A stretch of 64,000 nucleotides of DNA from contig NZ_JAQNDL010000002.1 of the NCBI RefSeq assembly GCF_028368995.1, positions 1,568,001 through 1,632,000 of the forward strand. Reading direction: 5' to 3'. The stretch comes from Nannocystis bainbridge. GTDB lineage: Bacteria; Myxococcota_A; Polyangia; Nannocystales; Nannocystaceae. The notes below the pieces were generated by a model, which worked only from the letters and a program-made list of their open reading frames with translations, did not search any database and was not told the origin of the DNA. Below are positions 2,434 through 60,138 of this stretch, piece by piece (the first letter of the stretch is position 1; each line of letters starts with the position of its first letter). Position numbers and translations under genes: made by a program.

Positions 2434-3989
2434 GATGCCCCCCTCTTGCGCATGCCGAGGGCGGCCACCTGCTCGGCGGCCCGCCTCGCGCCCTCGCTCT
2501 CGGCTCCTTCGCCGTAGACGCGGAGCGTCGTCCGGGGGTTCGTGTGGCCAAGCGCCATCATGATCCCCATCAGGTCGACGTTGCACGCCAGTGCTCGATG
2601 CGTGAACGTGTGGCGCATGTCGTGCGCCGTCCGCCGCTCGATCCCCGCGAGCGCACAAGCTCTCTCGAGGAAGCGGTTAACCGCCGTCTCCAACGCTTCG
2701 AGCGTGCGCCCGTCGAACAGCGGCCCCTCGCCGACGAGGCGACCCTGGAAGGCGGCGACCTCCCGGGCTTCCTCGTCCAGATAGATGATCCGCGCAACGT
2801 GGGTCTTGGTCTCGGGCAGGTGGACGCGCCCCTCGGGTCGCAGGTCGGCGACCTCCGTCCGCGAGGTCTCACCGATGCGAGCGCCGCTGAAGAGCAGCAG
2901 GCGGGCCACAACTGCGGGCGCGACGTAGTAGGCGAGCGACGGACCGGTGCGTTTCCTCTGCACCCCTTCGCGGATTCGCTGGATCAGCAGAAAGTTAATG
3001 GCGTCGCGCAGAGGCGCCATGTCGGTCTCGTCCACGGGCTTTGGCCGCTCGCGGACGTTCCGGGCCTCGACGTTCTCGGTCGGATCGAACCCCAGCTTGA
3101 TCCGCTTCTTCGTCGCCACGAACGCGAGCAGCGTCCGCAACCGGTGCAGGAGCAGGTAGGCCGTTCCCTTGCTCAGCTCGTGGGCCTTCTCTGCTTCGAG
3201 CGTGTTTCGCTTCGGCGAGAGGTAGTGAAACCACGCCTCCACGTTCTCGTCGTTGAGCTCGCCGAGTGGGATGTCGCCAAACAGTCGCCCCTCGGGGTCG
3301 CCGACCGGGACGTCCAGCTTGGTCTCGAGGTACCCGTAGCTCTCGGCGGTCTTCTCGGAGGCGTCCTTGCGCTGGGCGCGGCGCTCCAAGCTGTCGACCC
3401 AATGCGCTGCCGCGAGGCGCAGCGGCGACGCGATGGTGAGGGGCGCGAGCGCCCGCGGGTTCTTGGGCTTTCGCGGGCGGGGCTGCGCGCCGGGCCTCGG
3501 CGCCTGCGGCTGCGGCGGCGTTTCGCCGTCCGGCCGCGCGACGGTCGGCACGGTCTCCACGGGCAAGCCCAGGCGTCGCGCGAAGGCGCAGACCGAGCGC
3601 AACTGCGTGAGCGCGGCGTACGCGACCTTCGCCCCCCGGTGCTCCGATAGGTGCGCGTACCAGGCGAGCTCGGTCTTGGGGTTGAGCTGCTCGATCGGCA
3701 GGTCCGCGATCGAGCCGGCGGGGTCCTCGCAGCACCGCAGCTTGGGCACGAGCACGCTGCGGCACCACGTCACGGTGGTCCGCTTGACCTCGGCCGGCGT
3801 GCCGTCCGCGCGGGGAGCCGCGCGAGACTCCATGTCGGCGAGCCAGCGCGCCGTGGCTTCCCCCACGGTCATGTGCGCGACCTCCGGCGCTTGACCGTGG
3901 CGGATCTCCGCGAACAGTCCAGCCAGCCCGGCCGCTTCGATTAAACTGTCCAGCCCCCCTTGAGGGGGACTGGTTCCTGGCGCCCGCAC
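2430..3989 (-). CDS. int: Tyrosine recombinase/integrase
   Basis: Catalytic residues all present: SGARIGE (R), TKT (K), HDMRH (HxxR), LGH (H), RVYG (Y). Lies directly downstream of a tRNA 3' end. The true start may be the ATG at 3872 (MTVGEA). Confidence 0.92.
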   Translation of the reverse strand: MRAPGTSPPQGGLDSLIEAAGLAGLFAEIRHGQAPEVAHMTVGEATARWLADMESRAAPRADGTPAEVKRTTVTWCRSVLVPKLRCCEDPAGSIADLPIEQLNPKTELAWYAHLSEHRGAKVAYAALTQLRSVCAFARRLGLPVETVPTVARPDGETPPQPQAPRPGAQPRPRKPKNPRALAPLTIASPLRLAAAHWVDSLERRAQRKDASEKTAESYGYLETKLDVPVGDPEGRLFGDIPLGELNDENVEAWFHYLSPKRNTLEAEKAHELSKGTAYLLLHRLRTLLAFVATKKRIKLGFDPTENVEARNVRERPKPVDETDMAPLRDAINFLLIQRIREGVQRKRTGPSLAYYVAPAVVARLLLFSGARIGETSRTEVADLRPEGRVHLPETKTHVARIIYLDEEAREVAAFQGRLVGEGPLFDGRTLEALETAVNRFLERACALAGIERRTAHDMRHTFTHRALACNVDLMGIMMALGHTNPRTTLRVYGEGAESEGARRAAEQVAALGMRKRGAS

Positions 3990-4054
3990 CAGGAATCGAA
4001 CCTGGGACCTACAGTTTAGGAAACTGTCGCTCTATCCAACTGAGCTATGCGAGC
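3978..4054 (-). tRNA. tRNA-Arg (anticodon CCT)
   Basis: Reverse complement is GCTCGCATAGCTCAGTTGGATAGAGCGACAGTTTCCTAAACTGTAGGTCCCAGGTTCGATTCCTGGTGCGGGCGCCA: acceptor stem GCTCGCA/TGCGGGC, D arm, ACAGT/ACTGT anticodon stem around CCT, GTTCGA T-loop and encoded CCA. Confidence 0.96.
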
Positions 4055-8242: not shown

Positions 8243-9379
8243 ATGCCGACGAAGCAGCCGGTGCCAAAGACCGCGAAGAAGACTGCCGCGAAGAAGGCCC
8301 CGAAGACTTCAGCCAAGAAACCTGCGACCACGAGCCCCGCGAAGACGGCAGCCAAAAAAACAGCGACCACGAGCCCCGCGAAGAAGGCCGCCAAGAAACC
8401 AGCAGCCAAGAGCCCCGCGGAGAAGCTCGCAGCGAACCAGTCCGCCGCGAAGAAGAACCCGGCGAAGAAGCGTCCCGAGGTCGACCCGCTGCGCGAGCTC
8501 GCGTGGGACTGTTACTGTGCCTTCGACGCCGAGGATCCCACCCCGGCCATGCAGATCGAGTTCGTCGAAGGTTACTTGAGCAGCGCGAGCAGTCGCGGGC
8601 TCACCGTCGACTTCGACGCTGCCCTGCCCTACTGCGCCGAGATCCTCGAGCTCGAGATCGACGACCTGCGGGCCACCTGGGAGGCTCACGGGCGCAAGTT
8701 CGCTGCGGTCCGCGGCGCCTCCGGTGGGGCCGGCGAGCTCGACGCGCTCGTCGAGCTGTGCCAGACCGAGGGTCGCTTCGGCGCCGCCTTCGAGGACCAC
8801 GCTGCCAGGGCTCTGGCCGCCGCCTGGCCGCGTCTCGGGCCCGCGTTCGCTCGGCGCCTGCTCGCCGGGCGCCAGGACCTGCGGCTGCGCAACGCCGGGC
8901 CGTTCGCCACCCTCGTCGGCTTCGAGGCGGCCACGCGCCTGCGCAGCCTCCAGCTCGACGTCACCCCCGACTGCGACCTCGCCCCGCTCGCCGCGCTCAC
9001 CCGGCTCACGAGCTTGAACCTGAAGGGCAAGCGCCACGGATTCGGTCCCCTCGCCCGGCTGCCCCGGTTGACGCAGCTCGAGATCGAGGCCGACGCGACC
9101 GGCATCGCCGAGCTGGCCGACCTCCCGACCTTGCGGGTGCTCTCCCTGGTCGTCGCCGAGGACGTGTCGATCGCCAGCCTCCTCGATCTCGCGCACCTCG
9201 TCATGCTGAAGCTGCTCGCCGGCTCGCGGTCGCTCGACGAAGTCACCGCCGACACCATCGCCAGGCTCGCCCGCAAGAAATCGCGCTGGATCCGGCTGGC
9301 CGAGCACGAAGGATGGCCCTTGCAGCTCGCGGTGCCCTTCGAAAGGACCCCGGCCTTCGTCGAGATCAACCGGCGGTGA
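8243..9379 (+). CDS. Protein with Lys/Ala-rich (histone H1-like) N-terminus and leucine-rich repeats
   Basis: KKTAAKKAPK-type repeats, then LxxLxxLxxLxL units (LAPLAALTRLTSLNL, LARLPRLTQLEI, LADLPTLRVLSL). Confidence 0.75.
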   Translation: MPTKQPVPKTAKKTAAKKAPKTSAKKPATTSPAKTAAKKTATTSPAKKAAKKPAAKSPAEKLAANQSAAKKNPAKKRPEVDPLRELAWDCYCAFDAEDPTPAMQIEFVEGYLSSASSRGLTVDFDAALPYCAEILELEIDDLRATWEAHGRKFAAVRGASGGAGELDALVELCQTEGRFGAAFEDHAARALAAAWPRLGPAFARRLLAGRQDLRLRNAGPFATLVGFEAATRLRSLQLDVTPDCDLAPLAALTRLTSLNLKGKRHGFGPLARLPRLTQLEIEADATGIAELADLPTLRVLSLVVAEDVSIASLLDLAHLVMLKLLAGSRSLDEVTADTIARLARKKSRWIRLAEHEGWPLQLAVPFERTPAFVEINRR

Positions 9380-17480: not shown

Positions 17481-18749
17481 ATGCTTGGCCTGACTTGGTT
17501 GCGGGGCAGCGCGTGGATCGTCGTCGTCGCGGGCGCCGGCGGCTGCCAGATCTTGAACCCTGCCTTCGGCTTGCTCACCGACGGCGACAGCGACGGCGAC
17601 AGCGCGGCCTCGACAGGACCTGTCCTTACGACCAGCAGCGAGCCGACCACCAGCGACACCTCCGCCAGCGCCACCGATCCCGGCACCACCGTCAGCAGCG
17701 AGCCGCCCCTCACCACCAGCGTCGACACCGAAGACCTCACCGACACCGGCGTCGCCAGCGAGACGACCCTCGCCACCGATCCTGTCCCGCCCAGCTGCGG
17801 CGACGGCGTCCTCGATCCCGGCGAGGAGTGCGACGACGGCGACGGCGTCGACGGCGACGAGTGCACCAACAAGTGCACCCTCGCCGAGTGTGGCGACGGC
17901 ATCGTCCACGACGGCCAGGAGGAGTGCGACGCCGGCGGCGTCGATGCCGATCCGCTGTGCAACCCCGCGTGCCAGCTCGCCGAGTGCGGCGACGGCTTCA
18001 TCCAGCCGCCCGAGCAATGCGACGACACCAACGCCGACGAGTTCGACGGCTGCACCGGCGACTGTCAGCTCAGCTGCGGCGACGGCGTGTTCGATCCGGG
18101 GCGTGAGGAGTGCGATGCGAGCGACCCCGGCTTCGCCGAGCTCCTCGGCCTGTGCGACGAGCAGTGCGCCCTCAAGGCCTGCTTTCGCCTCACCAACACC
18201 GACGACAAGGATTTCCTCGACTCCGGTTGGTTCGACGCCTGCGCCACCGCTCCGGGCGAGCGGATCGCCGTCCTGTTGCGCGATCCCACCGGCGTCCAGT
18301 ACCTGCGGTTCGGCCACAAGCCGCCCTCGATCACCCCGTGGACCCCCTCGAAGATGACCTCCACCAAAGCGCCGCCCGAGCAGTGGAAGTTCGGCCAGCA
18401 CGATCGGCCCGTGGTCCTCATCGACCTCCTTTTCGACAAGCCCGGCCCGACCCCCGACGTGCTCTACGCCTTTGGCGACGACAGCCTGCCCAAGGTCAGC
18501 GACGCTGCGACTTGCCCCTCGAGCCTCGGCGACGGCTACGCGGTGGCGATCCTGCCCCAGGGCGGCACCACCCAGGCGCGCGTGCTGCTGATGCCCTTCG
18601 TCGGCACCAGCAAGGAGCGCAACCTCGGCGGCTGGCTCGCCACCGGCCCCGGCGTCGAGCTCTCGTACGACGACAGCCCCATGCCGCTGTGCAAGGTCGA
18701 GGACCCCCCGACCCCGTTCCTCGGCACCGTCGCCGTCGCCGTGTTCTGA
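17481..18749 (+). CDS. Lipoprotein with Myxococcales Cys-rich repeats (DUF4215-like)
   Basis: Signal ending GGC, Thr/Ser-rich linker, four CGDG...EECD repeats. Confidence 0.85.
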
Positions 18750-25344: not shown

Positions 25345-25350
25345 CCCATA

Positions 25351-25505
25351 GGACATGTGTGAACAAACATGTCCGATCTACCATGTCTCTTGCGCCATGG
25401 CCTTTGGCCTATGTCCTTCAGGACCTGCACATCAGAGCATGTTCTCTGGGACATGGCCCTTGATCTCCATGCAAAAGGACATGTCCGATAAGACATGTCA
25501 CATGC
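25351..25505. repeat. Long 14-bp palindromic-unit array between convergent genes
   Basis: Junctions at 25354, 25368, 25382, 25396, 25410, 25424, 25438, 25452, (25466 degenerate), 25480, 25494. Confidence 0.9.
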
Positions 25506-32076: not shown

Positions 32077-32148
32077 CCCGAAGAGCATGCGCGAACGGCC
32101 ATGCTCGAAAGGGCATGTCCCCGAGGACATGCCCTCCGGGACACGCTC
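32069..32148. repeat. 14-bp palindromic-unit array between convergent genes
   Basis: Junctions at 32072, 32086, 32100, 32114, 32128, 32142. Confidence 0.9.
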
Positions 32149-38252: not shown

Positions 38253-39017
38253 TCAGCGCCCGCGCGCCAGCGGCCGCACTGCCAGCGTCAGCGCCAGGCC
38301 GACCAGCAGCGCCGCTGCCATGATCTGCAGCGTCGACGCGTAGAGCTCGACCCGCGCGCCGCCCGGCGGCAGCGCCTGCAGCCGCGCCTCGCGGATCGAC
38401 GTGATGAGGATCGGCCCCGCCACCCCCGCCGCGCTCCAGGCGGTCAGGATCACCCCGTGCACCGCGCCGACGTTGCGGGCCCCGAACATGTCGGCCAAAA
38501 ACGCCGGGATCGTCGCAAACCCGCCGCCGTACATCGTGAAGATCACGACCACTGCCAGCTGGAACAGCTGCCACTGCCCGCTCGCCGCCAGCTGCGGGAT
38601 CGCCAGGAACAGCCCCGCCTGGGCCGCGAAGAAGATCGAGAACACCGCCCGGCGGCCGATCCGGTCCGACAGCGAGGCCCAGAAGATGCGCCCGAACGCG
38701 TTGAAGCCGGCGATCACCGACACCATCGCCGCCGCCTGCTCGGGCGTGCGCTGGAACAGGTCCTGCATCATCGGCGACGCCTGGGCCAGGATCGAGATGC
38801 CGGCGCTGATGTTGATGAACAGCATCCCCCACAGCAGCCAGAACTGGCGCGTGCGGACCGCCATCGGCATCGTCAGCTCCGGCTCGCCGCCGGCCTGGAT
38901 GGCCTTCGGGACATGTCCATCCGGACACCAGCCGTCGGGCGGGCGGGCCAGCGAGCGCGCCGCGATCATCATCACCACGAAGTACACCGCCGCCAGGATC
39001 CACAGCGTCTCGGCCAC
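38253..39017 (-). pseudogene. 5'-truncated OFA-family MFS transporter (C-terminal half)
   Basis: TRQFWLLW, FNAFGRIFWASLSDRIGRR, MYGGGFATIPAFLADMFG and HGVILTAWSAAG. The ORF begins at about TM6, 16 bp after the stop of an unrelated gene. Confidence 0.75.
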
Positions 39018-40163: not shown

Positions 40164-42398
40164 TCAGCGCCGCGGCGTGATGCGCCAGCACTTGTGGATC
40201 TTCGGGCTGCGCGCGAAGTCCTTGGGGATCGTCGTCGCCGACAGGTCCTCGATGTCGAGGTCGGCGAGGGCCTCCTGGTCGAGGCGGAAGCGCCGGTAGT
40301 TGGTCGAGAAGATCAGCACCCCGTCGCGCTCGAGCAGGCGCACCGCGGACCGGATCAGCTCGACGTGGTCGCGCTGCACGTCGAGCACGCCCTCCATCCT
40401 CTTCGAGTTGGAGAACGTCGGCGGGTCGAGGAAGATGGCGCCGTAGCGGCGCAGCTCGCGGGCCATGAACTCGCGGCACTCGGCCTCGACGACCCGGTGC
40501 TGCGGCCCGCGCAGCCCGTTGAGCTCGAGGTTGCGGCGGGCCCACGCGCAGTACGTGGTCGAGAGGTCGACCGTGGTCGTCGACAGCGCCCCGGCCTTGC
40601 CGGCGTAGACCGAGGCCGTACCGGTGTACGCGAACAGGTTGAGGAACCGCTTGCCGCGGGCCACCTGGCCGACCAGCGCGCGGGTGTCGCGATGGTCGAG
40701 GAACAGCCCGGTGTCGAGGTAATCGGTGAGGTTGACGAGGAAGCGCCCTGGCCCCTCGCGCACCTCGATCAGGTCGCCGGCGTCGTCGCGGCGGCCGTAC
40801 TGCCCGCCGCCCTTGGCCCGCTCGCGGCGCTTGCAGACCACCTGCGCCGCCGGCAGCTCGAGCGCGTCGGGGATCACGCGCAGCGCCTCGCGCAGGCGCG
40901 CCGCGGCCCGCACCGGATCGATCTCGGACGGCGCCGCGTACTCCTGGACCAGCGCCCAGTCGCGGTAGAGGTCGACCGCGACCGCGTACTCGGGGATGTC
41001 GGAGTCGTAGACCCGGAAGGCCTCGATCCCGTGGCGCGCGGCCCAGCTGCCGAGCTGCTTGCGGTTCTTCCGCAGCCGATTGAACAGCGCCTCGCCGCCC
41101 TCGCTGCGGGTGTACGTGCGCGGCGGCGGGGCCTCGCGCGGGATCTCGAAGCGCAGCAGGTTGACCGCGATCGCCCCGTTGTAGAGCACGTGGCGCCGCT
41201 CGGCCCGCAGCCCGATCGCGTGGCCGAGCTCGAGGTCGGGCGCCAGGATCGCCGCCTTCCAGCCGCCGAAGTGGTCGCGCAGGCGCGCGCCGAGCAGCTC
41301 GTAGAGCGCCGGCATGTCGGCCCGGACCCCGAGCCGCTCGCCGTACGGCGGGTTGGTGGCGACGAGGCCCGTGATCTTCGGGACATGTCCCGAAGGACCT
41401 GTCTCGGCAGACTTGACCTCACGAACATGTCCCGAAGGACCTGTCTCCGGGGCCACCAGCTCGGCGAGCTCGCGCCGCTCGACGCGGATCCGGCCGCCGA
41501 GGCCCGCGCGCGCCGCGTTGGCGATCGCCGCCTTGACCGCCGCCGGATCGCCGTCGTAGCCGAAGATCGGCGGCACCTTGTCGATCCCGATCGCCGCCCG
41601 CGCGCGCGCCTCGGTCAGCAATTCGTCCCACAGCGCCTTCTGGTGGCCACGCCAGCCGAGGAAGCCGAAGTACTCGCGGCCGAGCCCCGGCGCGCGGTCG
41701 CAGGCCATGTGGGCCGCCTCGATCAGCAGCGTGCCCGAGCCGCACATCGGATCGACCAGCAGCGCGCCCGCGGCCGCCAGCGCCGGCCAGCCCGCGCGCA
41801 TCAGCAGGCCCGCCGCCAGGTTCTCTTTGATCGGCGCCTCGGCCCCTTCTTCGCGGTAGCCGCGACGGTGTAGGCCCTCGCCGGCGAGGTCGATCGAGAT
41901 CACGGCCTCGTCGTGGGATGTCTCCTGGAACATGCCCTTGATGCCATGTCCCGCCGGCTTGCGCAGGTGCACGCTGACGCGCACGTCGGGCCGCTGCACC
42001 GCGACGTCGGGGCGCACGCCGCTGCCGGCATTGAACTGATCGACGATCGCGTCCTTGACCCGCTGCGCGCCGAAGCGGGTGTGCACGATCGCCGCGTTGG
42101 CGCCGGTGAAGTCGACCGCCATCGTCCCGCGCGCCGACATGTGCTGGCGCCAGTCGACCCGCTGCACCGTGGTGTAGAGCTCGTCGGCGTCGCGCGCCGG
42201 CCCCGTCGAGACCTCGAGCAGCACGCGCCCGGCCAGCCGCGACCACAGGCACGCGCGGTAGCCGATGACCAGCGGCCCGCGGAAATACACGCCCGCCGGT
42301 TGGAGCCGGATCGCCGTCGCACCGAGCGCGCGGAGCTCGTCGGCGAGCAGCTCGAGGAGGCCTTGCGGAGCGCTGGCGAAGAAGTTGTGCTCGTTCAC
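40164..42398 (-). CDS. rlmKL: Bifunctional 23S rRNA m2G2445/m7G2069 methyltransferase RlmKL
   Basis: LHRRGYR, APIKENLAA, DPMCGSGT, NPPYGERL, YLDTGLFLDHR, FLNLFAYTG, DPPTFSNSKRM. Confidence 0.95.
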   Translation of the reverse strand: MNEHNFFASAPQGLLELLADELRALGATAIRLQPAGVYFRGPLVIGYRACLWSRLAGRVLLEVSTGPARDADELYTTVQRVDWRQHMSARGTMAVDFTGANAAIVHTRFGAQRVKDAIVDQFNAGSGVRPDVAVQRPDVRVSVHLRKPAGHGIKGMFQETSHDEAVISIDLAGEGLHRRGYREEGAEAPIKENLAAGLLMRAGWPALAAAGALLVDPMCGSGTLLIEAAHMACDRAPGLGREYFGFLGWRGHQKALWDELLTEARARAAIGIDKVPPIFGYDGDPAAVKAAIANAARAGLGGRIRVERRELAELVAPETGPSGHVREVKSAETGPSGHVPKITGLVATNPPYGERLGVRADMPALYELLGARLRDHFGGWKAAILAPDLELGHAIGLRAERRHVLYNGAIAVNLLRFEIPREAPPPRTYTRSEGGEALFNRLRKNRKQLGSWAARHGIEAFRVYDSDIPEYAVAVDLYRDWALVQEYAAPSEIDPVRAAARLREALRVIPDALELPAAQVVCKRRERAKGGGQYGRRDDAGDLIEVREGPGRFLVNLTDYLDTGLFLDHRDTRALVGQVARGKRFLNLFAYTGTASVYAGKAGALSTTTVDLSTTYCAWARRNLELNGLRGPQHRVVEAECREFMARELRRYGAIFLDPPTFSNSKRMEGVLDVQRDHVELIRSAVRLLERDGVLIFSTNYRRFRLDQEALADLDIEDLSATTIPKDFARSPKIHKCWRITPRR
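41381..41446. repeat. 14-bp unit array inside rlmKL, including a 42-bp-period direct duplication
   Basis: Junctions at 41384, 41398, 41412, 41426, 41440; ACATGTCCCGAAGGACCTGTCTC occurs at 41383 and 41425. Confidence 0.9.
41914..41951. repeat. 14-bp unit array inside rlmKL
   Basis: Junctions at 41917, 41931, 41945. Confidence 0.75.
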
Positions 42399-51584: not shown

Positions 51585-52331
51585 GTGACGGAACGCGGAT
51601 CCGACCCCGGCAGCCCCGGCCTCGCGGCAGCAAGCGACACGGCGCTCGCCGAGCTCGCGCAGCGGTCCGCGGCGCTCGAGGGTCAGCCTGCCGAGTCCAT
51701 CCTCGCCTGGGTGTTCGAGCGCTGGGCCGGCCTGCGGATCGGCCTCAGCTCCGCCTTTGGGCCCGAGGGGTGCGCCCTCATCCACCTCGCGCGCGCCGTC
51801 CGTCCCGACGTCCCGATCTACACCATCGACACCGGCTACCTGTTCGCCGAGACCCTCGCCGTGCGCGAGGCCTTCCGGGCCCAGGGCGCCGACATCCGCG
51901 TCGTCGAGCCGCTCGTCACCCTCCGCGCCCAGGCCGAGCGGCACGGCCCCGACCTGTTCGCCCGCGATCCCGACGCTTGTTGCGAGATCCGCAAGGTCGA
52001 GCCCATGCGCCGCGTCCTCGACCGGCTCGACGTCTGGATCACCGCCATCCGCCGCGACCAGGCCAGCACCCGCGCCGGCACCCCGATCCTCGGCACCGCG
52101 CGGCGGGCCGACGGCGGCCTGGTCATCAAGGTCGCGCCGCTGGTCGCGTGGACGCGCAAGGACACCTGGCGCTACCTCCTCGACCACGACGTCCCCTACA
52201 ACCCGCTGCTCGACGCCGGCTACACCAGCATCGGCTGCGAGCCGTGCACCGCCCGCCCGCCGGGCGACGACGAGCGCGGCGGCCGGTGGTCGGGCACCGG
52301 CAAGACCGAGTGCGGGATCCACCACCTCTGA
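51585..52331 (+). CDS. cysH: (Phospho)adenylyl-sulfate reductase, Fe-S type
   Basis: IDTGYLF, CCEIRKVEP, GYTSIGCEPCT, ERGGRW, KTECGIH. Confidence 0.92.
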   Translation: MTERGSDPGSPGLAAASDTALAELAQRSAALEGQPAESILAWVFERWAGLRIGLSSAFGPEGCALIHLARAVRPDVPIYTIDTGYLFAETLAVREAFRAQGADIRVVEPLVTLRAQAERHGPDLFARDPDACCEIRKVEPMRRVLDRLDVWITAIRRDQASTRAGTPILGTARRADGGLVIKVAPLVAWTRKDTWRYLLDHDVPYNPLLDAGYTSIGCEPCTARPPGDDERGGRWSGTGKTECGIHHL

Positions 52332-52423
52332 CCCTGTCCTTCGGGGCATGCCCCTTCGAACCTGTCCCTGGCGACCTGTCCGAACGAACCTGTCCTTGAT
52401 CACCTGCCCTTGAGGACCTGTCC
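52330..52423. repeat. 14-bp unit array (CCTG-junction variant) filling the cysH-metallophosphoesterase gap
   Basis: Junctions at 52333, 52347, 52361, 52375, 52389, 52403, 52417. Confidence 0.9.
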
Positions 52424-52425
52424 TT

Positions 52426-56872: not shown

Positions 56873-57059
56873 GTAGGTGTCCGTTCGGACATGCCCTTGG
56901 CGGCATGTCCGAAGCGCCCTGTCGCTTCGGACATGCGCCTTCGAGCATGTCCCTCGATACACCTCACCGGCGCGCCTCGGCATGTCCTTCGACATATGCG
57001 CTGCCGCCCCGCACGCTGTCTTCGCCGCAGTGATCGCGCATGTCCTTCGAGACATGCGC
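56873..57059. repeat. Compound 14-bp palindromic-unit array between convergent genes
   Basis: Junctions at 56876, 56890, 56904, 56918, 56932, 56946, 56960; then 56981, 56995; then 57039, 57053. Confidence 0.9.
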
Positions 57060-57915: not shown

Positions 57916-60138
57916 ATGATAGCCTTGGCTTGTTGTTCGCGCCGTAAGGCGTCCCTCACACTGCTTTTGACGGTGATTTCACGGGGGGCGGCGGCCGCAC
58001 CTGGCAGCCCGACCCGAACCGGGCTGTGCCGGATGATGGTGGCGGCGTCGCGCAGAAGCTCGAACTCGTCGACATCGACGGCGACGGCTTCGTCGATCTC
58101 GCGGTCGCCAACAGCCGCGGCGACGCGCTCGGCAGCGACCTCGACGCGCAACCGAACGCCCTCGTGCACAACGAAGGCGGGCTCGGCTTCTCGCCGATGC
58201 CCGGCGCGTTTGACGAGCCCGACAACGCCTACGTGATCAAGGCCGGCGACCTGAACGGCGACGGCAAGCCCGACCTCGTGGTCGGCGTCGCCTACGGCGG
58301 CCCCAGCTATGTGCTCTTCAATTTCGAGGGCGCGTTCATTCGCCGTCCACCCCGTGCCCGCGCTGGCCAACAAGCAGATCAACAGCGCCTTCACCGTCCT
58401 CGATCTCGAGGCCGACGGCGACCTCGATCTCGTCACCTTGCAGGACGGCTTCGGCGGCGGTCGCAACACCGTGCTCGTCGGCGACGGCAGCGGCGGCTTC
58501 GTCGACAACCCGGGCGCCTACTGGGCCTTCGTCGACAATCCGCCGCGCCTCGACTTCGACGCCGACAGCCTCGACTTCGACAACGACGGCACCCCTGATG
58601 TCGTCGTGCTCGGCCCGCAGCAGAACCCCGGCGAGGTCCACGCTCGCCTGCTGCGCAACGACGGCAGCTCGCTGGTCCCGACCGCCCCCGACGGCGCCGC
58701 GTTCACGCCGGGCCCCGAGCTCGCCGCCAGCTTCGGCGTCGCCGTCGCCGACTTCGATCACGACCTCCGGCCCGACCTCGCGGTCGCCGTGCGCGACCCC
58801 GAGGCCACCAACGCCGTCCTGTTCGCCGGCCCCGACGTGCCCGAAGACATCACGCCGCCGCGGGTCGGCATGCTCGCTCCGCTGCCTGACGTCGTCGAGC
58901 CCGGCAGCGAGGTGCGGGTGCGCGTCCGCGTCGACGACGGGCGCACCCCGGCGCGCTGGCACGATTTCTTTCACGACCTCGCGCTGCCGACCTACAACCT
59001 GGTCCACAGCCTCGGCATCGCCCACCTGCGGCGCCTGCCGTACGTCGAGTTCGCCTTCGATCTCGAAGATCCCGCGCTGCTCGACGCGATGCCCGACGCC
59101 GGCCCCTTCAAGCACATCGTCCCCGGCGAGTGGTACGGCGAGTCGTTGTGGCGGATCCGCTTCAGCGTGGATCCGCAGTGGAGCGTCGACCACGAGTTCT
59201 TCGTCTGGCGCGTGTGTGCCATCGACGCCGCCGGCTCTCGCGGCTGCAGCGCGGCCGCGCAGGCGACCCTCGCCGACGCGCCGGTGAACGAGTGCGGCAA
59301 CGGCGTGCTCGATCGCGGCGAGGCGTGCGACGACGCCCTCGATCCGCTGTGCGACGGTTGCAAGCTGACCTGCGGCGACGGCCTGTGCATCGCCCCCGAG
59401 GACCCCGGCAACTGCCCCGAAGATTGCCCCGGCTGCGACGACGACGGCACCTGCGAGCCCGGCGAGGACGCGACCTGCTGCGACTGCATGAACTGCGGCG
59501 TGTGTGGCGACGGCGTCTGTCAGACGAACCTCGAGACCGCGATCGACTGCGCCGAGGACTGCAGCGCCTGCGGCGACGGCATCTGCGACACCCTGGAGGA
59601 CGGGACCACCTGCGCCCTCGACTGCTTCGTGTGCGGCGACGGCATCTGCCAGGGCGCCGAGTCGCTCGACGACTGCCCGTGGGACTGCTCGATCTGCGGC
59701 GACTGCGTGTGCCACGGCAACGAGGACCCCGACAACTGCTGGTTCGACTGCGGCGAAGGTTGCGGCGAGCCGACCCACGGCGCCTGGTGCGGCGACAACT
59801 TCTGCGAACCGTCGGAGATGGGCTCGTGCATCGAGGACTGCGGCGCTTGCGGCGACGGGGTCTGCAACCCCGGCGAGCGCGATGCTTGCCCCGAGGACTG
59901 CGGCGTGTGCGGCGACTGCGTCTGCGACCCCGCCGAGACGCCTGGCCTCTGCCCGGAGGACTGCACCGGCATGTGCGGCGGCGACGGCTCGGCCACCACC
60001 GGCCCCGAACCCGACGCGGTCGACGACGGCCTGGCCTGCAGCTGCCGCGACACGCCCTCCGGCGCCGGCGGCCTGGCGTTCGGCCTCACGCTCTTGCTCG
60101 CCCGCCGGCGCCGAGGTGATCGTTCGGACATGTCGTGA
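57916..60138 (+). pseudogene. FG-GAP + Cys-rich repeat + MYXO-CTERM-like protein, split by apparent frameshifts
   Basis: Signal-like segment in the 57916 frame, DIDGDG/DLNGDG repeats in the 58026 frame, continuation in the 58309 frame through CGDG repeats to LACSC...LLLARRRR. Confidence 0.65.

Follow-up and report, generated by a model that had tools for sequence, protein, structure and literature searches.

A 14-bp palindromic repeat of Nannocystis forms in-frame arrays within rlmKL and other genes

Introduction

The stretch analysed here, referred to as the window, comprises 64,000 nucleotides of Nannocystis bainbridge (assembly GCF_028368995.1, contig NZ_JAQNDL010000002.1, positions 1,568,001 to 1,632,000 of the forward strand). 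It contains rlmKL, a housekeeping gene interrupted in two places by tandem arrays of a 14-bp repeat that recurs throughout the genome within and, more often, between genes. A previous reading of the letters alone (the sequence-only reading) had proposed that these arrays added in-frame peptides to RlmKL, and that the repeat expands or inserts into genes and survives when the frame is kept, in the manner of Rickettsia palindromic elements (RPEs). We followed up this interpretation by comparison with relatives, structure modelling and a survey of the whole genome (designated G000), and found it largely supported. The repeat itself appears from listings and abstracts to be undescribed in the literature, where the papers listed for the string of its core, GGACATGTCC, mostly concern p53 response elements and none is bacterial.

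Results

Two repeat arrays lie within the rlmKL reading frame

The open reading frame (ORF) that hosts both arrays (Table 1) is predicted to encode the bifunctional 23S rRNA m7G2069/m2G2445 methyltransferase RlmKL. It matched the NCBIfam equivalog NF008748 (cut-off 466 bits) with 883.1 bits, residues 2-741 corresponding to positions 2-701 of the 704-position profile, and residues 5-741 aligned with the structure of the E. coli enzyme (3V97; E = 1.4e-182). Pfam placed RlmL_1st at residues 5-60, THUMP at 68-147, UPF0020 from residue 179 and Methyltrans_SAM at 544-698. Together with the 3V97 alignment, this layout fits the published domain order, given in PMC3367195 as THUMP plus a ferredoxin-like module, methyltransferase I, EEHEE and methyltransferase II. 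Residues N349, P350 and P351 of the NPPY motif were identical in all 22 sequences compared.

Table 1. Positions of rlmKL, repeat arrays and other features in the window
Feature	Window position	Strand	Description
rlmKL	40164-42398	minus	ORF of 744 amino acids (aa); hosts both rlmKL arrays
Site-2 array	41379-41448		Five 14-bp units: four by weight matrix, one degenerate
42-bp direct copies at site 2	41372-41413 and 41414-41455		Direct-repeat detection, spacing 42
Site-1 array	41913-41954		Three 14-bp units; two scoring by weight matrix, 41926-41953
Five-unit array	18749-18818		Gene 3′ end (gene edge or intergenic, depending on the analysis)
Longest array of the window	25349-25502		Spans 11 units; intergenic; weight matrix
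Four-unit array	32081-32136		Intergenic; weight matrix
Five-unit array	56885-56954		Intergenic; nested hairpin fold
Gene-edge array	52328-52425		Spans seven units
Single high-scoring unit	38907-38920		Within ORF 38253-39017 (minus strand)
tRNA gene	3981-4054	minus	Rfam match
Unrelated tandem repeat	8310-8425		39 bp x 3.0
Unrelated tandem repeat	17823-18004		96 bp x 1.9
Unrelated tandem repeat	59557-59751		63 bp x 3.1

The two arrays, at what we call site 1 and site 2, had been reported with their peptides by the sequence-only reading, and the ORF translation and a weight matrix of the repeat unit confirmed both. The site-1 array codes for about residues 148-163 (PAGHGIKGMFQETSH), in the hairpin where the THUMP domain ends; here (P)AGHGIKGMFQETSH is the peptide flanked by VSVHLRK and DEAVISIDLAG. 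The site-2 array, which Tandem Repeats Finder detected with a period of 14 and 4.6 copies, codes for residues about 317-341, ETGPSGHVREVKSAETGPSGHVPKI, and is followed directly by TGLVATNPPYGERL, with the strand that leads to NPPY next; its insertion breaks the Pfam match to UPF0020 into two stretches. The 42-bp direct duplication that had been noted at site 2 is present in diverged form. Its two 42-mers are identical at 32 of 42 bases, a 34-nt stretch shows 85% identity at a spacing of 42 and, by reading, a 23-nt core is the same in both copies.

Both arrays are insertions relative to RlmKL of other bacteria

The RlmKL proteins of 22 relatives (five close congeners, three distant members of the genus and 14 relatives from outside it) were aligned, and the residues between conserved anchors were counted at both sites. 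At site 1 the loop measured 21 aa in G000 as in the five close congeners and 20-31 aa in the three distant genus members, against 6 aa in 13 of the non-genus relatives and 7 aa in the remaining one. At site 2 it measured 34 aa in G000, 20 aa in the close congeners, 16 aa in the distant genus members and 11-17 aa in the 14 non-genus relatives. The E. coli protein (3V97) is shorter by 15 aa at site 1 and by 20 aa at site 2. Orthologues that lack the motif thus have much shorter loops, and both arrays are insertions by this comparison, as had been surmised from the typical appearance of RlmKL. The site-1 inserts of the three distant genus members differ in length, and each contains units of the repeat family.

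A variant of this site was observed in G008, one of the distant genus members (rlmKL locus L009), in which the site-1 insert has become a run of GGACAGCAR-type half units with a 9-bp period, coding for GQQGQQGQRGQQGQ; this run seems to be a secondary in-frame microsatellite derived from the 14-bp unit.

The difference from the close congeners at site 2 corresponds to a single frame-preserving step. The site-2 DNA is exactly 42 bp shorter in G001, G005, G007 and G010, and the G003 protein is likewise shorter by 14 aa. In the rlmKL tree G003 falls outside the clade containing G000, with support of 99/98. Because G003 branches first and carries the short form, the simplest account would be that the 42 bp (14 aa) were gained once, in the G000 lineage alone. 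Contigs from soil metagenomes include both the long and the short form of site 2. The long form occurs, with a single mismatch, in one 486-nt contig, which may derive from the source sample of the window itself, so that the long form in metagenomes is not independent support; the short-form contigs represent a relative that differs at about 7-9 per ~95 letters.

The inserts are predicted to be disordered loops

An AlphaFold2 model of RlmKL, built from the 22-sequence alignment, had a mean predicted local distance difference test score (pLDDT) of 85.2. Its only segments of more than three residues with pLDDT below 50 were residues 150-160 and 320-340. The first is flanked by strands 139-146 and 164-170 where the THUMP match ends, and the second by strands 304-308 and 344-348, the latter running into NPPY at residues 349-352. 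Both inserts are thus disordered loops in the model, which agrees with the earlier expectation that they would map to loops. By analogy with class I methyltransferase topology, the N-terminal end of the strand leading to NPPY would face away from the active site. We infer that the two inserts are probably neutral passengers.

The repeat is a dispersed family limited to the genus

The repeat unit consists of a perfect 10-bp palindrome, GGACATGTCC, plus four variable bases, and units are repeated head to tail every 14 bp; two adjacent units can pair as a hairpin whose stem is 10 bp and whose loop is 4 nt long. In the window, 38 matches to GGACATGTCC with at most one mismatch were found where 2.0 are expected, a number reached in none of 100 shuffles. 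The whole genome (11.05 Mb in five contigs, 72% G+C) contains 956 exact copies, and the runner-up palindrome of equal composition is sevenfold rarer (139). Distances between matches genome-wide peak at 14 bp (602), 28 bp (214), 42 bp (146) and 56 bp (43).

Scanning the genome with the weight matrix gave 4,596 loci, compared with 395 in a reversed-sequence control. The control loci were all single units (395 of 395), whereas 2,457 of the real loci had two or more. These arrays range from two to 12 units and from 28 to about 170 bp, with variable spacers. Rfam placed no family over the arrays of the window, where it matched one tRNA only.

The family is limited to the genus Nannocystis among the 41 genomes searched. 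Tandem pairs of units were found in all 11 genomes of the genus, with 7-848 each; outside it, G013 gave two tandem-pair matches and the remaining 29 relatives gave none.

The density of tandem pairs in G000 (848 in 11.05 Mb) is about twice that in the five close congeners (366-532 in 12-13 Mb). One possibility is that the family recently proliferated or was homogenised in G000; another is that the congeners have slightly divergent consensus 'dialects'. Single units often lie in genes (1,357 of 2,139, against 395 singleton loci overall in the reversed control) and may be either remnants or seeds. One such unit in the window, high-scoring and within a neighbouring ORF (Table 1), codes for ..PDGHVPK..

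Arrays in other genes carry the signature of a 42-bp step

By place, the 2,457 arrays of at least two units divide into 1,644 that are intergenic, 198 at gene edges and 615 within genes. A strict mid-gene set required that both 60-codon flanks be best coding in the same frame and that the array lie at least 180 nt from the gene ends; it retained 353 arrays in 321 genes. The translations of coding arrays recur as ..DMS..GTGP.GHV.., which are the three frames of the unit in turn, and by reading the repeat core is without a stop codon in all six frames.

NCBIfam identified hosts among 18 array-bearing genes that were scanned, including MutS, Mfd, SMC and an error-prone DNA polymerase (DnaE2), as well as pyruvate dehydrogenase E2, a large helicase, an RND permease and an acyl-CoA ligase. 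At their arrays, MutS and Mfd carry inserts of about 23 aa and about 26-30 aa, respectively, which comparison with relatives showed to be restricted to the genus; in DnaE2 the insert at the array site is confined to the close clade. The proposal that the repeat expands or inserts in genes when the frame is kept therefore extends beyond rlmKL, being borne out by these three inserts, by the mid-gene arrays and by the spacer signal described below.

Many of the hosts inspected serve genome maintenance (MutS, Mfd, DnaE2-type polymerase, SMC, a large DEXH helicase and an AddB-like protein; for example loci L052, L053, L055, L056 and L062). This may be a selection effect, since long, well-scoring genes were picked.

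In coding arrays, the variable spacers of units 42 bp apart agreed at 1.61 of 4 positions, where a null model preserving codon phase gives 1.28 (z = 3.7; reached in 0 of 500 permutations), and identical spacers at this distance made up 10.1% against 3.3% expected. The same phase-aware test gave no excess of spacer matches in coding arrays at 14, 28 or 56 bp. In intergenic arrays the excess was small and of similar size at 14, 28 and 42 bp, and the signal restricted to 42 bp is thus confined to coding arrays. The genome-wide spacer test supports growth by 42-bp steps within genes. The clearest cases of such periodic growth are two genes with three near-identical 14-aa tandem peptides each (G000:C3:1347898-1348037 and G000:C3:1013321-1013446); the peptides are AAMSSGTGPFEPVA-like and RAWPxDHVSxDMTx-like and come from arrays spanning 9-10 units.

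A further similarity in coding arrays, the sharing of the same deviations from consensus at 42 bp (2.52-fold), was dropped as evidence of duplication because codon-position pressure can generate it.

Arrays outside genes are concentrated after genes and are predicted to fold into hairpins

Arrays occupy 681 of 1,449 gaps between convergent genes (47%), 684 of 4,328 tandem gaps (16%) and 131 of 1,464 divergent gaps (9%). Their density is 2.32 per kb of convergent gap and 0.28 per kb of divergent gap. Within tandem gaps, 76% of 709 arrays lie closer to the upstream stop codon.

Neighbouring units of these arrays co-vary. In intergenic arrays, a deviant base in one unit found its complement at the mirror-image position of the unit 14 bp away 2,142 times against 1,333 expected (ratio 1.61). 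No excess was seen at distances of 28 and 42 bp (ratio 1.00) or in coding arrays (0.97). Palindromy inside the unit, by comparison, was depleted at deviant positions, at 0.76 of expectation.

RNA folding gave z scores of -1.9 to -7.3 relative to shuffles for seven of eight stretches folded, the rlmKL site-1 stretch being marginal (z = -1.6). In the four-unit array of the window (Table 1), the neighbouring units GGGCATGTCC and GGACATGCCC pair in an 11-bp stem through mutually compensating bases (-39 kcal/mol, z = -5.9), and the intergenic five-unit array forms a nested hairpin of -46.9 kcal/mol (z = -7.3). The five-unit array at a gene 3′ end (z = -2.9) has 14 bp, or one unit, less in G005 and G007 and is of equal length in G001 and G010. 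From their location, covariation and predicted folds, we suggest that the arrays act as orientation-free, REP-like hairpins at transcript 3′ ends. Sequencing runs were also searched, and no RNA run was listed among the matches.

Classical intrinsic terminators were also considered for the arrays and ruled out, because no T-run follows them.

The gene-edge array of Table 1 is composed mostly of the non-palindromic unit ACCTGTCC in direct orientation; unlike those of most intergenic arrays, its units cannot pair perfectly.

Discussion

A proposed course of events

We consider it probable that the repeat constitutes a dispersed hairpin family whose main habitat is the 3′ ends of genes, and which also grows, filtered by the reading frame, in tolerant loops of genes, rlmKL included. 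Array length would change by whole units, most likely through slipped-strand or hairpin-aided misalignment. Within genes, the survivors would be stop-free, frame-keeping versions in tolerant surface loops, and because 3 x 14 = 42 bp is the smallest step that keeps the frame, coding arrays would grow by 42 bp. Such an array would yield a 14-aa peptide that passes through all three frames of the unit (..DMS.. / ..T(G/C)P.. / ..GHV..), and these peptides are presumably translated. For rlmKL, the proposed history comprises an insert of about 15 aa, as old as the genus, in the THUMP-terminal hairpin and a younger array before the NPPY strand in methyltransferase domain I, to which a further 42 bp would have been added in the G000 lineage.

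Several points weigh against this account. The two copies at site 2 share no more than those 32 of 42 bases, yet orthologous genes are about 93% identical, which suggests that a single clean duplication of recent date may be too simple an account, the event being perhaps older, more complex or subject to faster evolution. The expectation that indels at the arrays would be multiples of 42 bp held for the gain at site 2 but failed for the older inserts (15 aa at site 1, about 23 aa in MutS), so that growth by 42 bp at a time cannot explain everything. The array of SMC had to be discarded as a case of insertion, as the site varies in length in many relatives and is uninformative. A T-run follows 6% of arrays, hardly different from the 5% on the control side. 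When indels in the window were sought against four congeners, BLAST alignments fragmented in divergent stretches and a flank-anchored version sized 11 of 22 arrays, three of the 11 showing unit-sized differences; few arrays could be sized because intergenic flanks align poorly. Finally, all coding and intergenic counts depend on a crude gene caller of our own (8,097 genes, 84% coding).

Alternative explanations

Gain and loss of units would account for the growth of arrays, not for their initial seeding at positions that are empty in repeat-free relatives. That step could be supplied by a mobility enzyme of the REP/REPIN-RAYT or MITE-IS style (MITE, miniature inverted-repeat transposable element; IS, insertion sequence), in which case the rlmKL inserts would be products of transposition and not of local growth. 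Some form of spread is required by thousands of copies at unrelated loci, arrays stand at sites for which repeat-free relatives offer no seed sequence, and the roughly twofold density of tandem pairs in G000 compared with its congeners would also suit an active process. Other findings make such an enzyme unlikely. The Y1 family of RAYT (PF01797) had no match in G000, which is 90% complete, and was found in six of 14 control genomes, this search being confined to PF01797. Array flanks of 300 bp had three or more genomic matches in 89 of 4,914 cases, which leaves neither an element body nor a terminal repeat, and a BLAST search of the genome found the rlmKL insert no donor match longer than about 26 nt. 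Nor could any target-site duplication be made out. The idea of a MITE or IS body was dropped on these two grounds, that flanks are rarely multi-copy and that the rlmKL arrays have no long donor match.

The motif might instead be a signal in duplex DNA, either an uptake sequence or the site of a dimeric nucleoid protein, with the copies in genes kept for that role. The uptake sequences of Neisseria and Haemophilus are lineage-specific motifs of 9-12 bp with thousands of copies, some of them in genes, where they occupy tolerant protein regions; paired copies form hairpins after genes, and a bias towards genome-maintenance genes has been reported. The Nannocystis family resembles them in being a genus-specific 10-bp motif with thousands of copies, with hairpin pairs after genes and further copies inside genes. 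Several of its hosts (MutS, Mfd, DnaE2, SMC and helicases) may show the same bias, and a perfect palindrome would suit a dimeric binder. Coding copies, however, decay between congeners with amino-acid changes. Uptake sequences are also non-palindromic and arise by substitution, whereas the Nannocystis unit is palindromic and forms 14-bp tandem arrays that lengthen proteins. Because adjacent units co-vary while palindromy inside the unit is depleted, a folded single strand fits better than a duplex site, and we regard a duplex signal as improbable.

With respect to site 2, the 42 bp could be ancestral and have been deleted in the congeners. Unit loss is as easy as gain in repeat arrays, and the 10 differences in 42 between the copies exceed the roughly 7% divergence of orthologues, which hints at an old duplication. 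The distribution of the short form, which G003 shares with four other close genomes and the three distant members of the genus, would then require one gain and at least two losses in place of one gain, and the position of G003 outside the G000 clade renders an ancestral long form distinctly improbable. It is very improbable that the loops are adaptations of RlmKL at the protein level with the DNA motif a by-product of a selected peptide, which the 21-aa length of site 1 and its few changes in all six close genomes might suggest, since the motif is mostly intergenic (1,644 of 2,457 arrays), one array uses all three unit frames, the inserts have pLDDT below 50, site-2 residues vary among congeners (HVGEA, QEREA, HDREC) and unrelated proteins bear the same peptide pattern.

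Relation to known repeat families

REP, BIME and REPIN sequences are short hairpin palindromes with copy numbers in the hundreds to thousands, located downstream of genes and in convergent gaps. The Nannocystis arrays are like REP and REPIN sequences in that hairpin palindromes, single or clustered, are concentrated after genes. They differ in that G000 has no match to the RAYT family PF01797, in that the flanks of the core are variable and hold no conserved 5′ GTAG-type tetranucleotide, in that the stem is itself palindromic, which results in a strict 14-bp tandem period, and in that about a quarter of the arrays lie within genes. MITEs differ from the Nannocystis arrays in possessing, besides terminal inverted repeats and target-site duplications, a repeated element body, which the rarity of multi-copy flanks (the 89 of 4,914 given above) speaks against here. 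The pneumococcal terminator-like repeat SPRITE is not known to occur as an in-frame protein insert; it shares with the arrays the character of a hairpin repeat at 3′ ends, as far as its name in PMC10969869 conveys, and the arrays are distinguished from it by the lack of a T-run.

RPEs, to which the sequence-only reading had likened the repeat, are described in the same source as ten families of single elements, about 150 bp long, with a peptide conserved in each family (Ogata et al. 2000, via PMC10969869). The parallel holds for behaviour: both are palindromic dispersed families limited to one genus, and both stand in frame within unrelated housekeeping genes (here RlmKL twice, MutS, Mfd and DnaE2) at sites compatible with the fold. 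It does not extend to element size, body, habitat or host. The Nannocystis entity is a 14-bp unit in arrays with flanks that are not repeated, as opposed to an element of about 100-150 bp; it resides mainly at gene 3′ ends and would grow in place by 42 bp; and its host is free-living with an 11-Mb genome of 72% G+C, in contrast to the reduced genome of the intracellular Rickettsia. The likeness to RPEs is one of behaviour and not of family.

Significance

The inserts in RlmKL and other essential enzymes would provide a clear and datable case of non-coding repeat DNA turned into protein sequence in a free-living bacterium with a large genome, a behaviour best known from Rickettsia. Since the unit of 14 is not divisible by three, the family amounts to a natural experiment on how the reading frame filters the growth of repeats, in which the spacer signal at 42 bp only, limited to coding arrays, can be read against that of intergenic arrays. 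More than 300 host proteins make up a map of loops that tolerate insertion. The arrays are likely to serve as strain markers for Nannocystis, and likely also to be a source of gene-calling and alignment artefacts in genomes that are mined for natural products. If the role at 3′ ends is real, they would show how transcripts are ended or stabilised at 72% G+C, where U-tract terminators are rare.

The family also makes it testable how so short a repeat spreads without a known transposase. We advance one stronger proposal tentatively, as a possibility that we would not yet call likely: that this hairpin repeat spreads as units of 14-28 bp by a novel form of seeding, without a REP/RAYT-type transposase or an element body, generates 14-aa periodic peptides in more than 300 proteins by 42-bp steps, and marks almost half of all convergent junctions, probably as a 3′-end hairpin that works in either direction. 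Were this so, the seeding mechanism would be new for bacterial repeats, and the family would be a genus-wide generator of protein sequence, DNA-repair enzymes included.

Other features of the window

The remaining features in Table 1 are separate from the repeat family. The tRNA gene is the sole Rfam match. The consensus units of the 96-bp and 63-bp tandem repeats contain several TGC (Cys) codons, and these two repeats may encode cysteine-rich modules.

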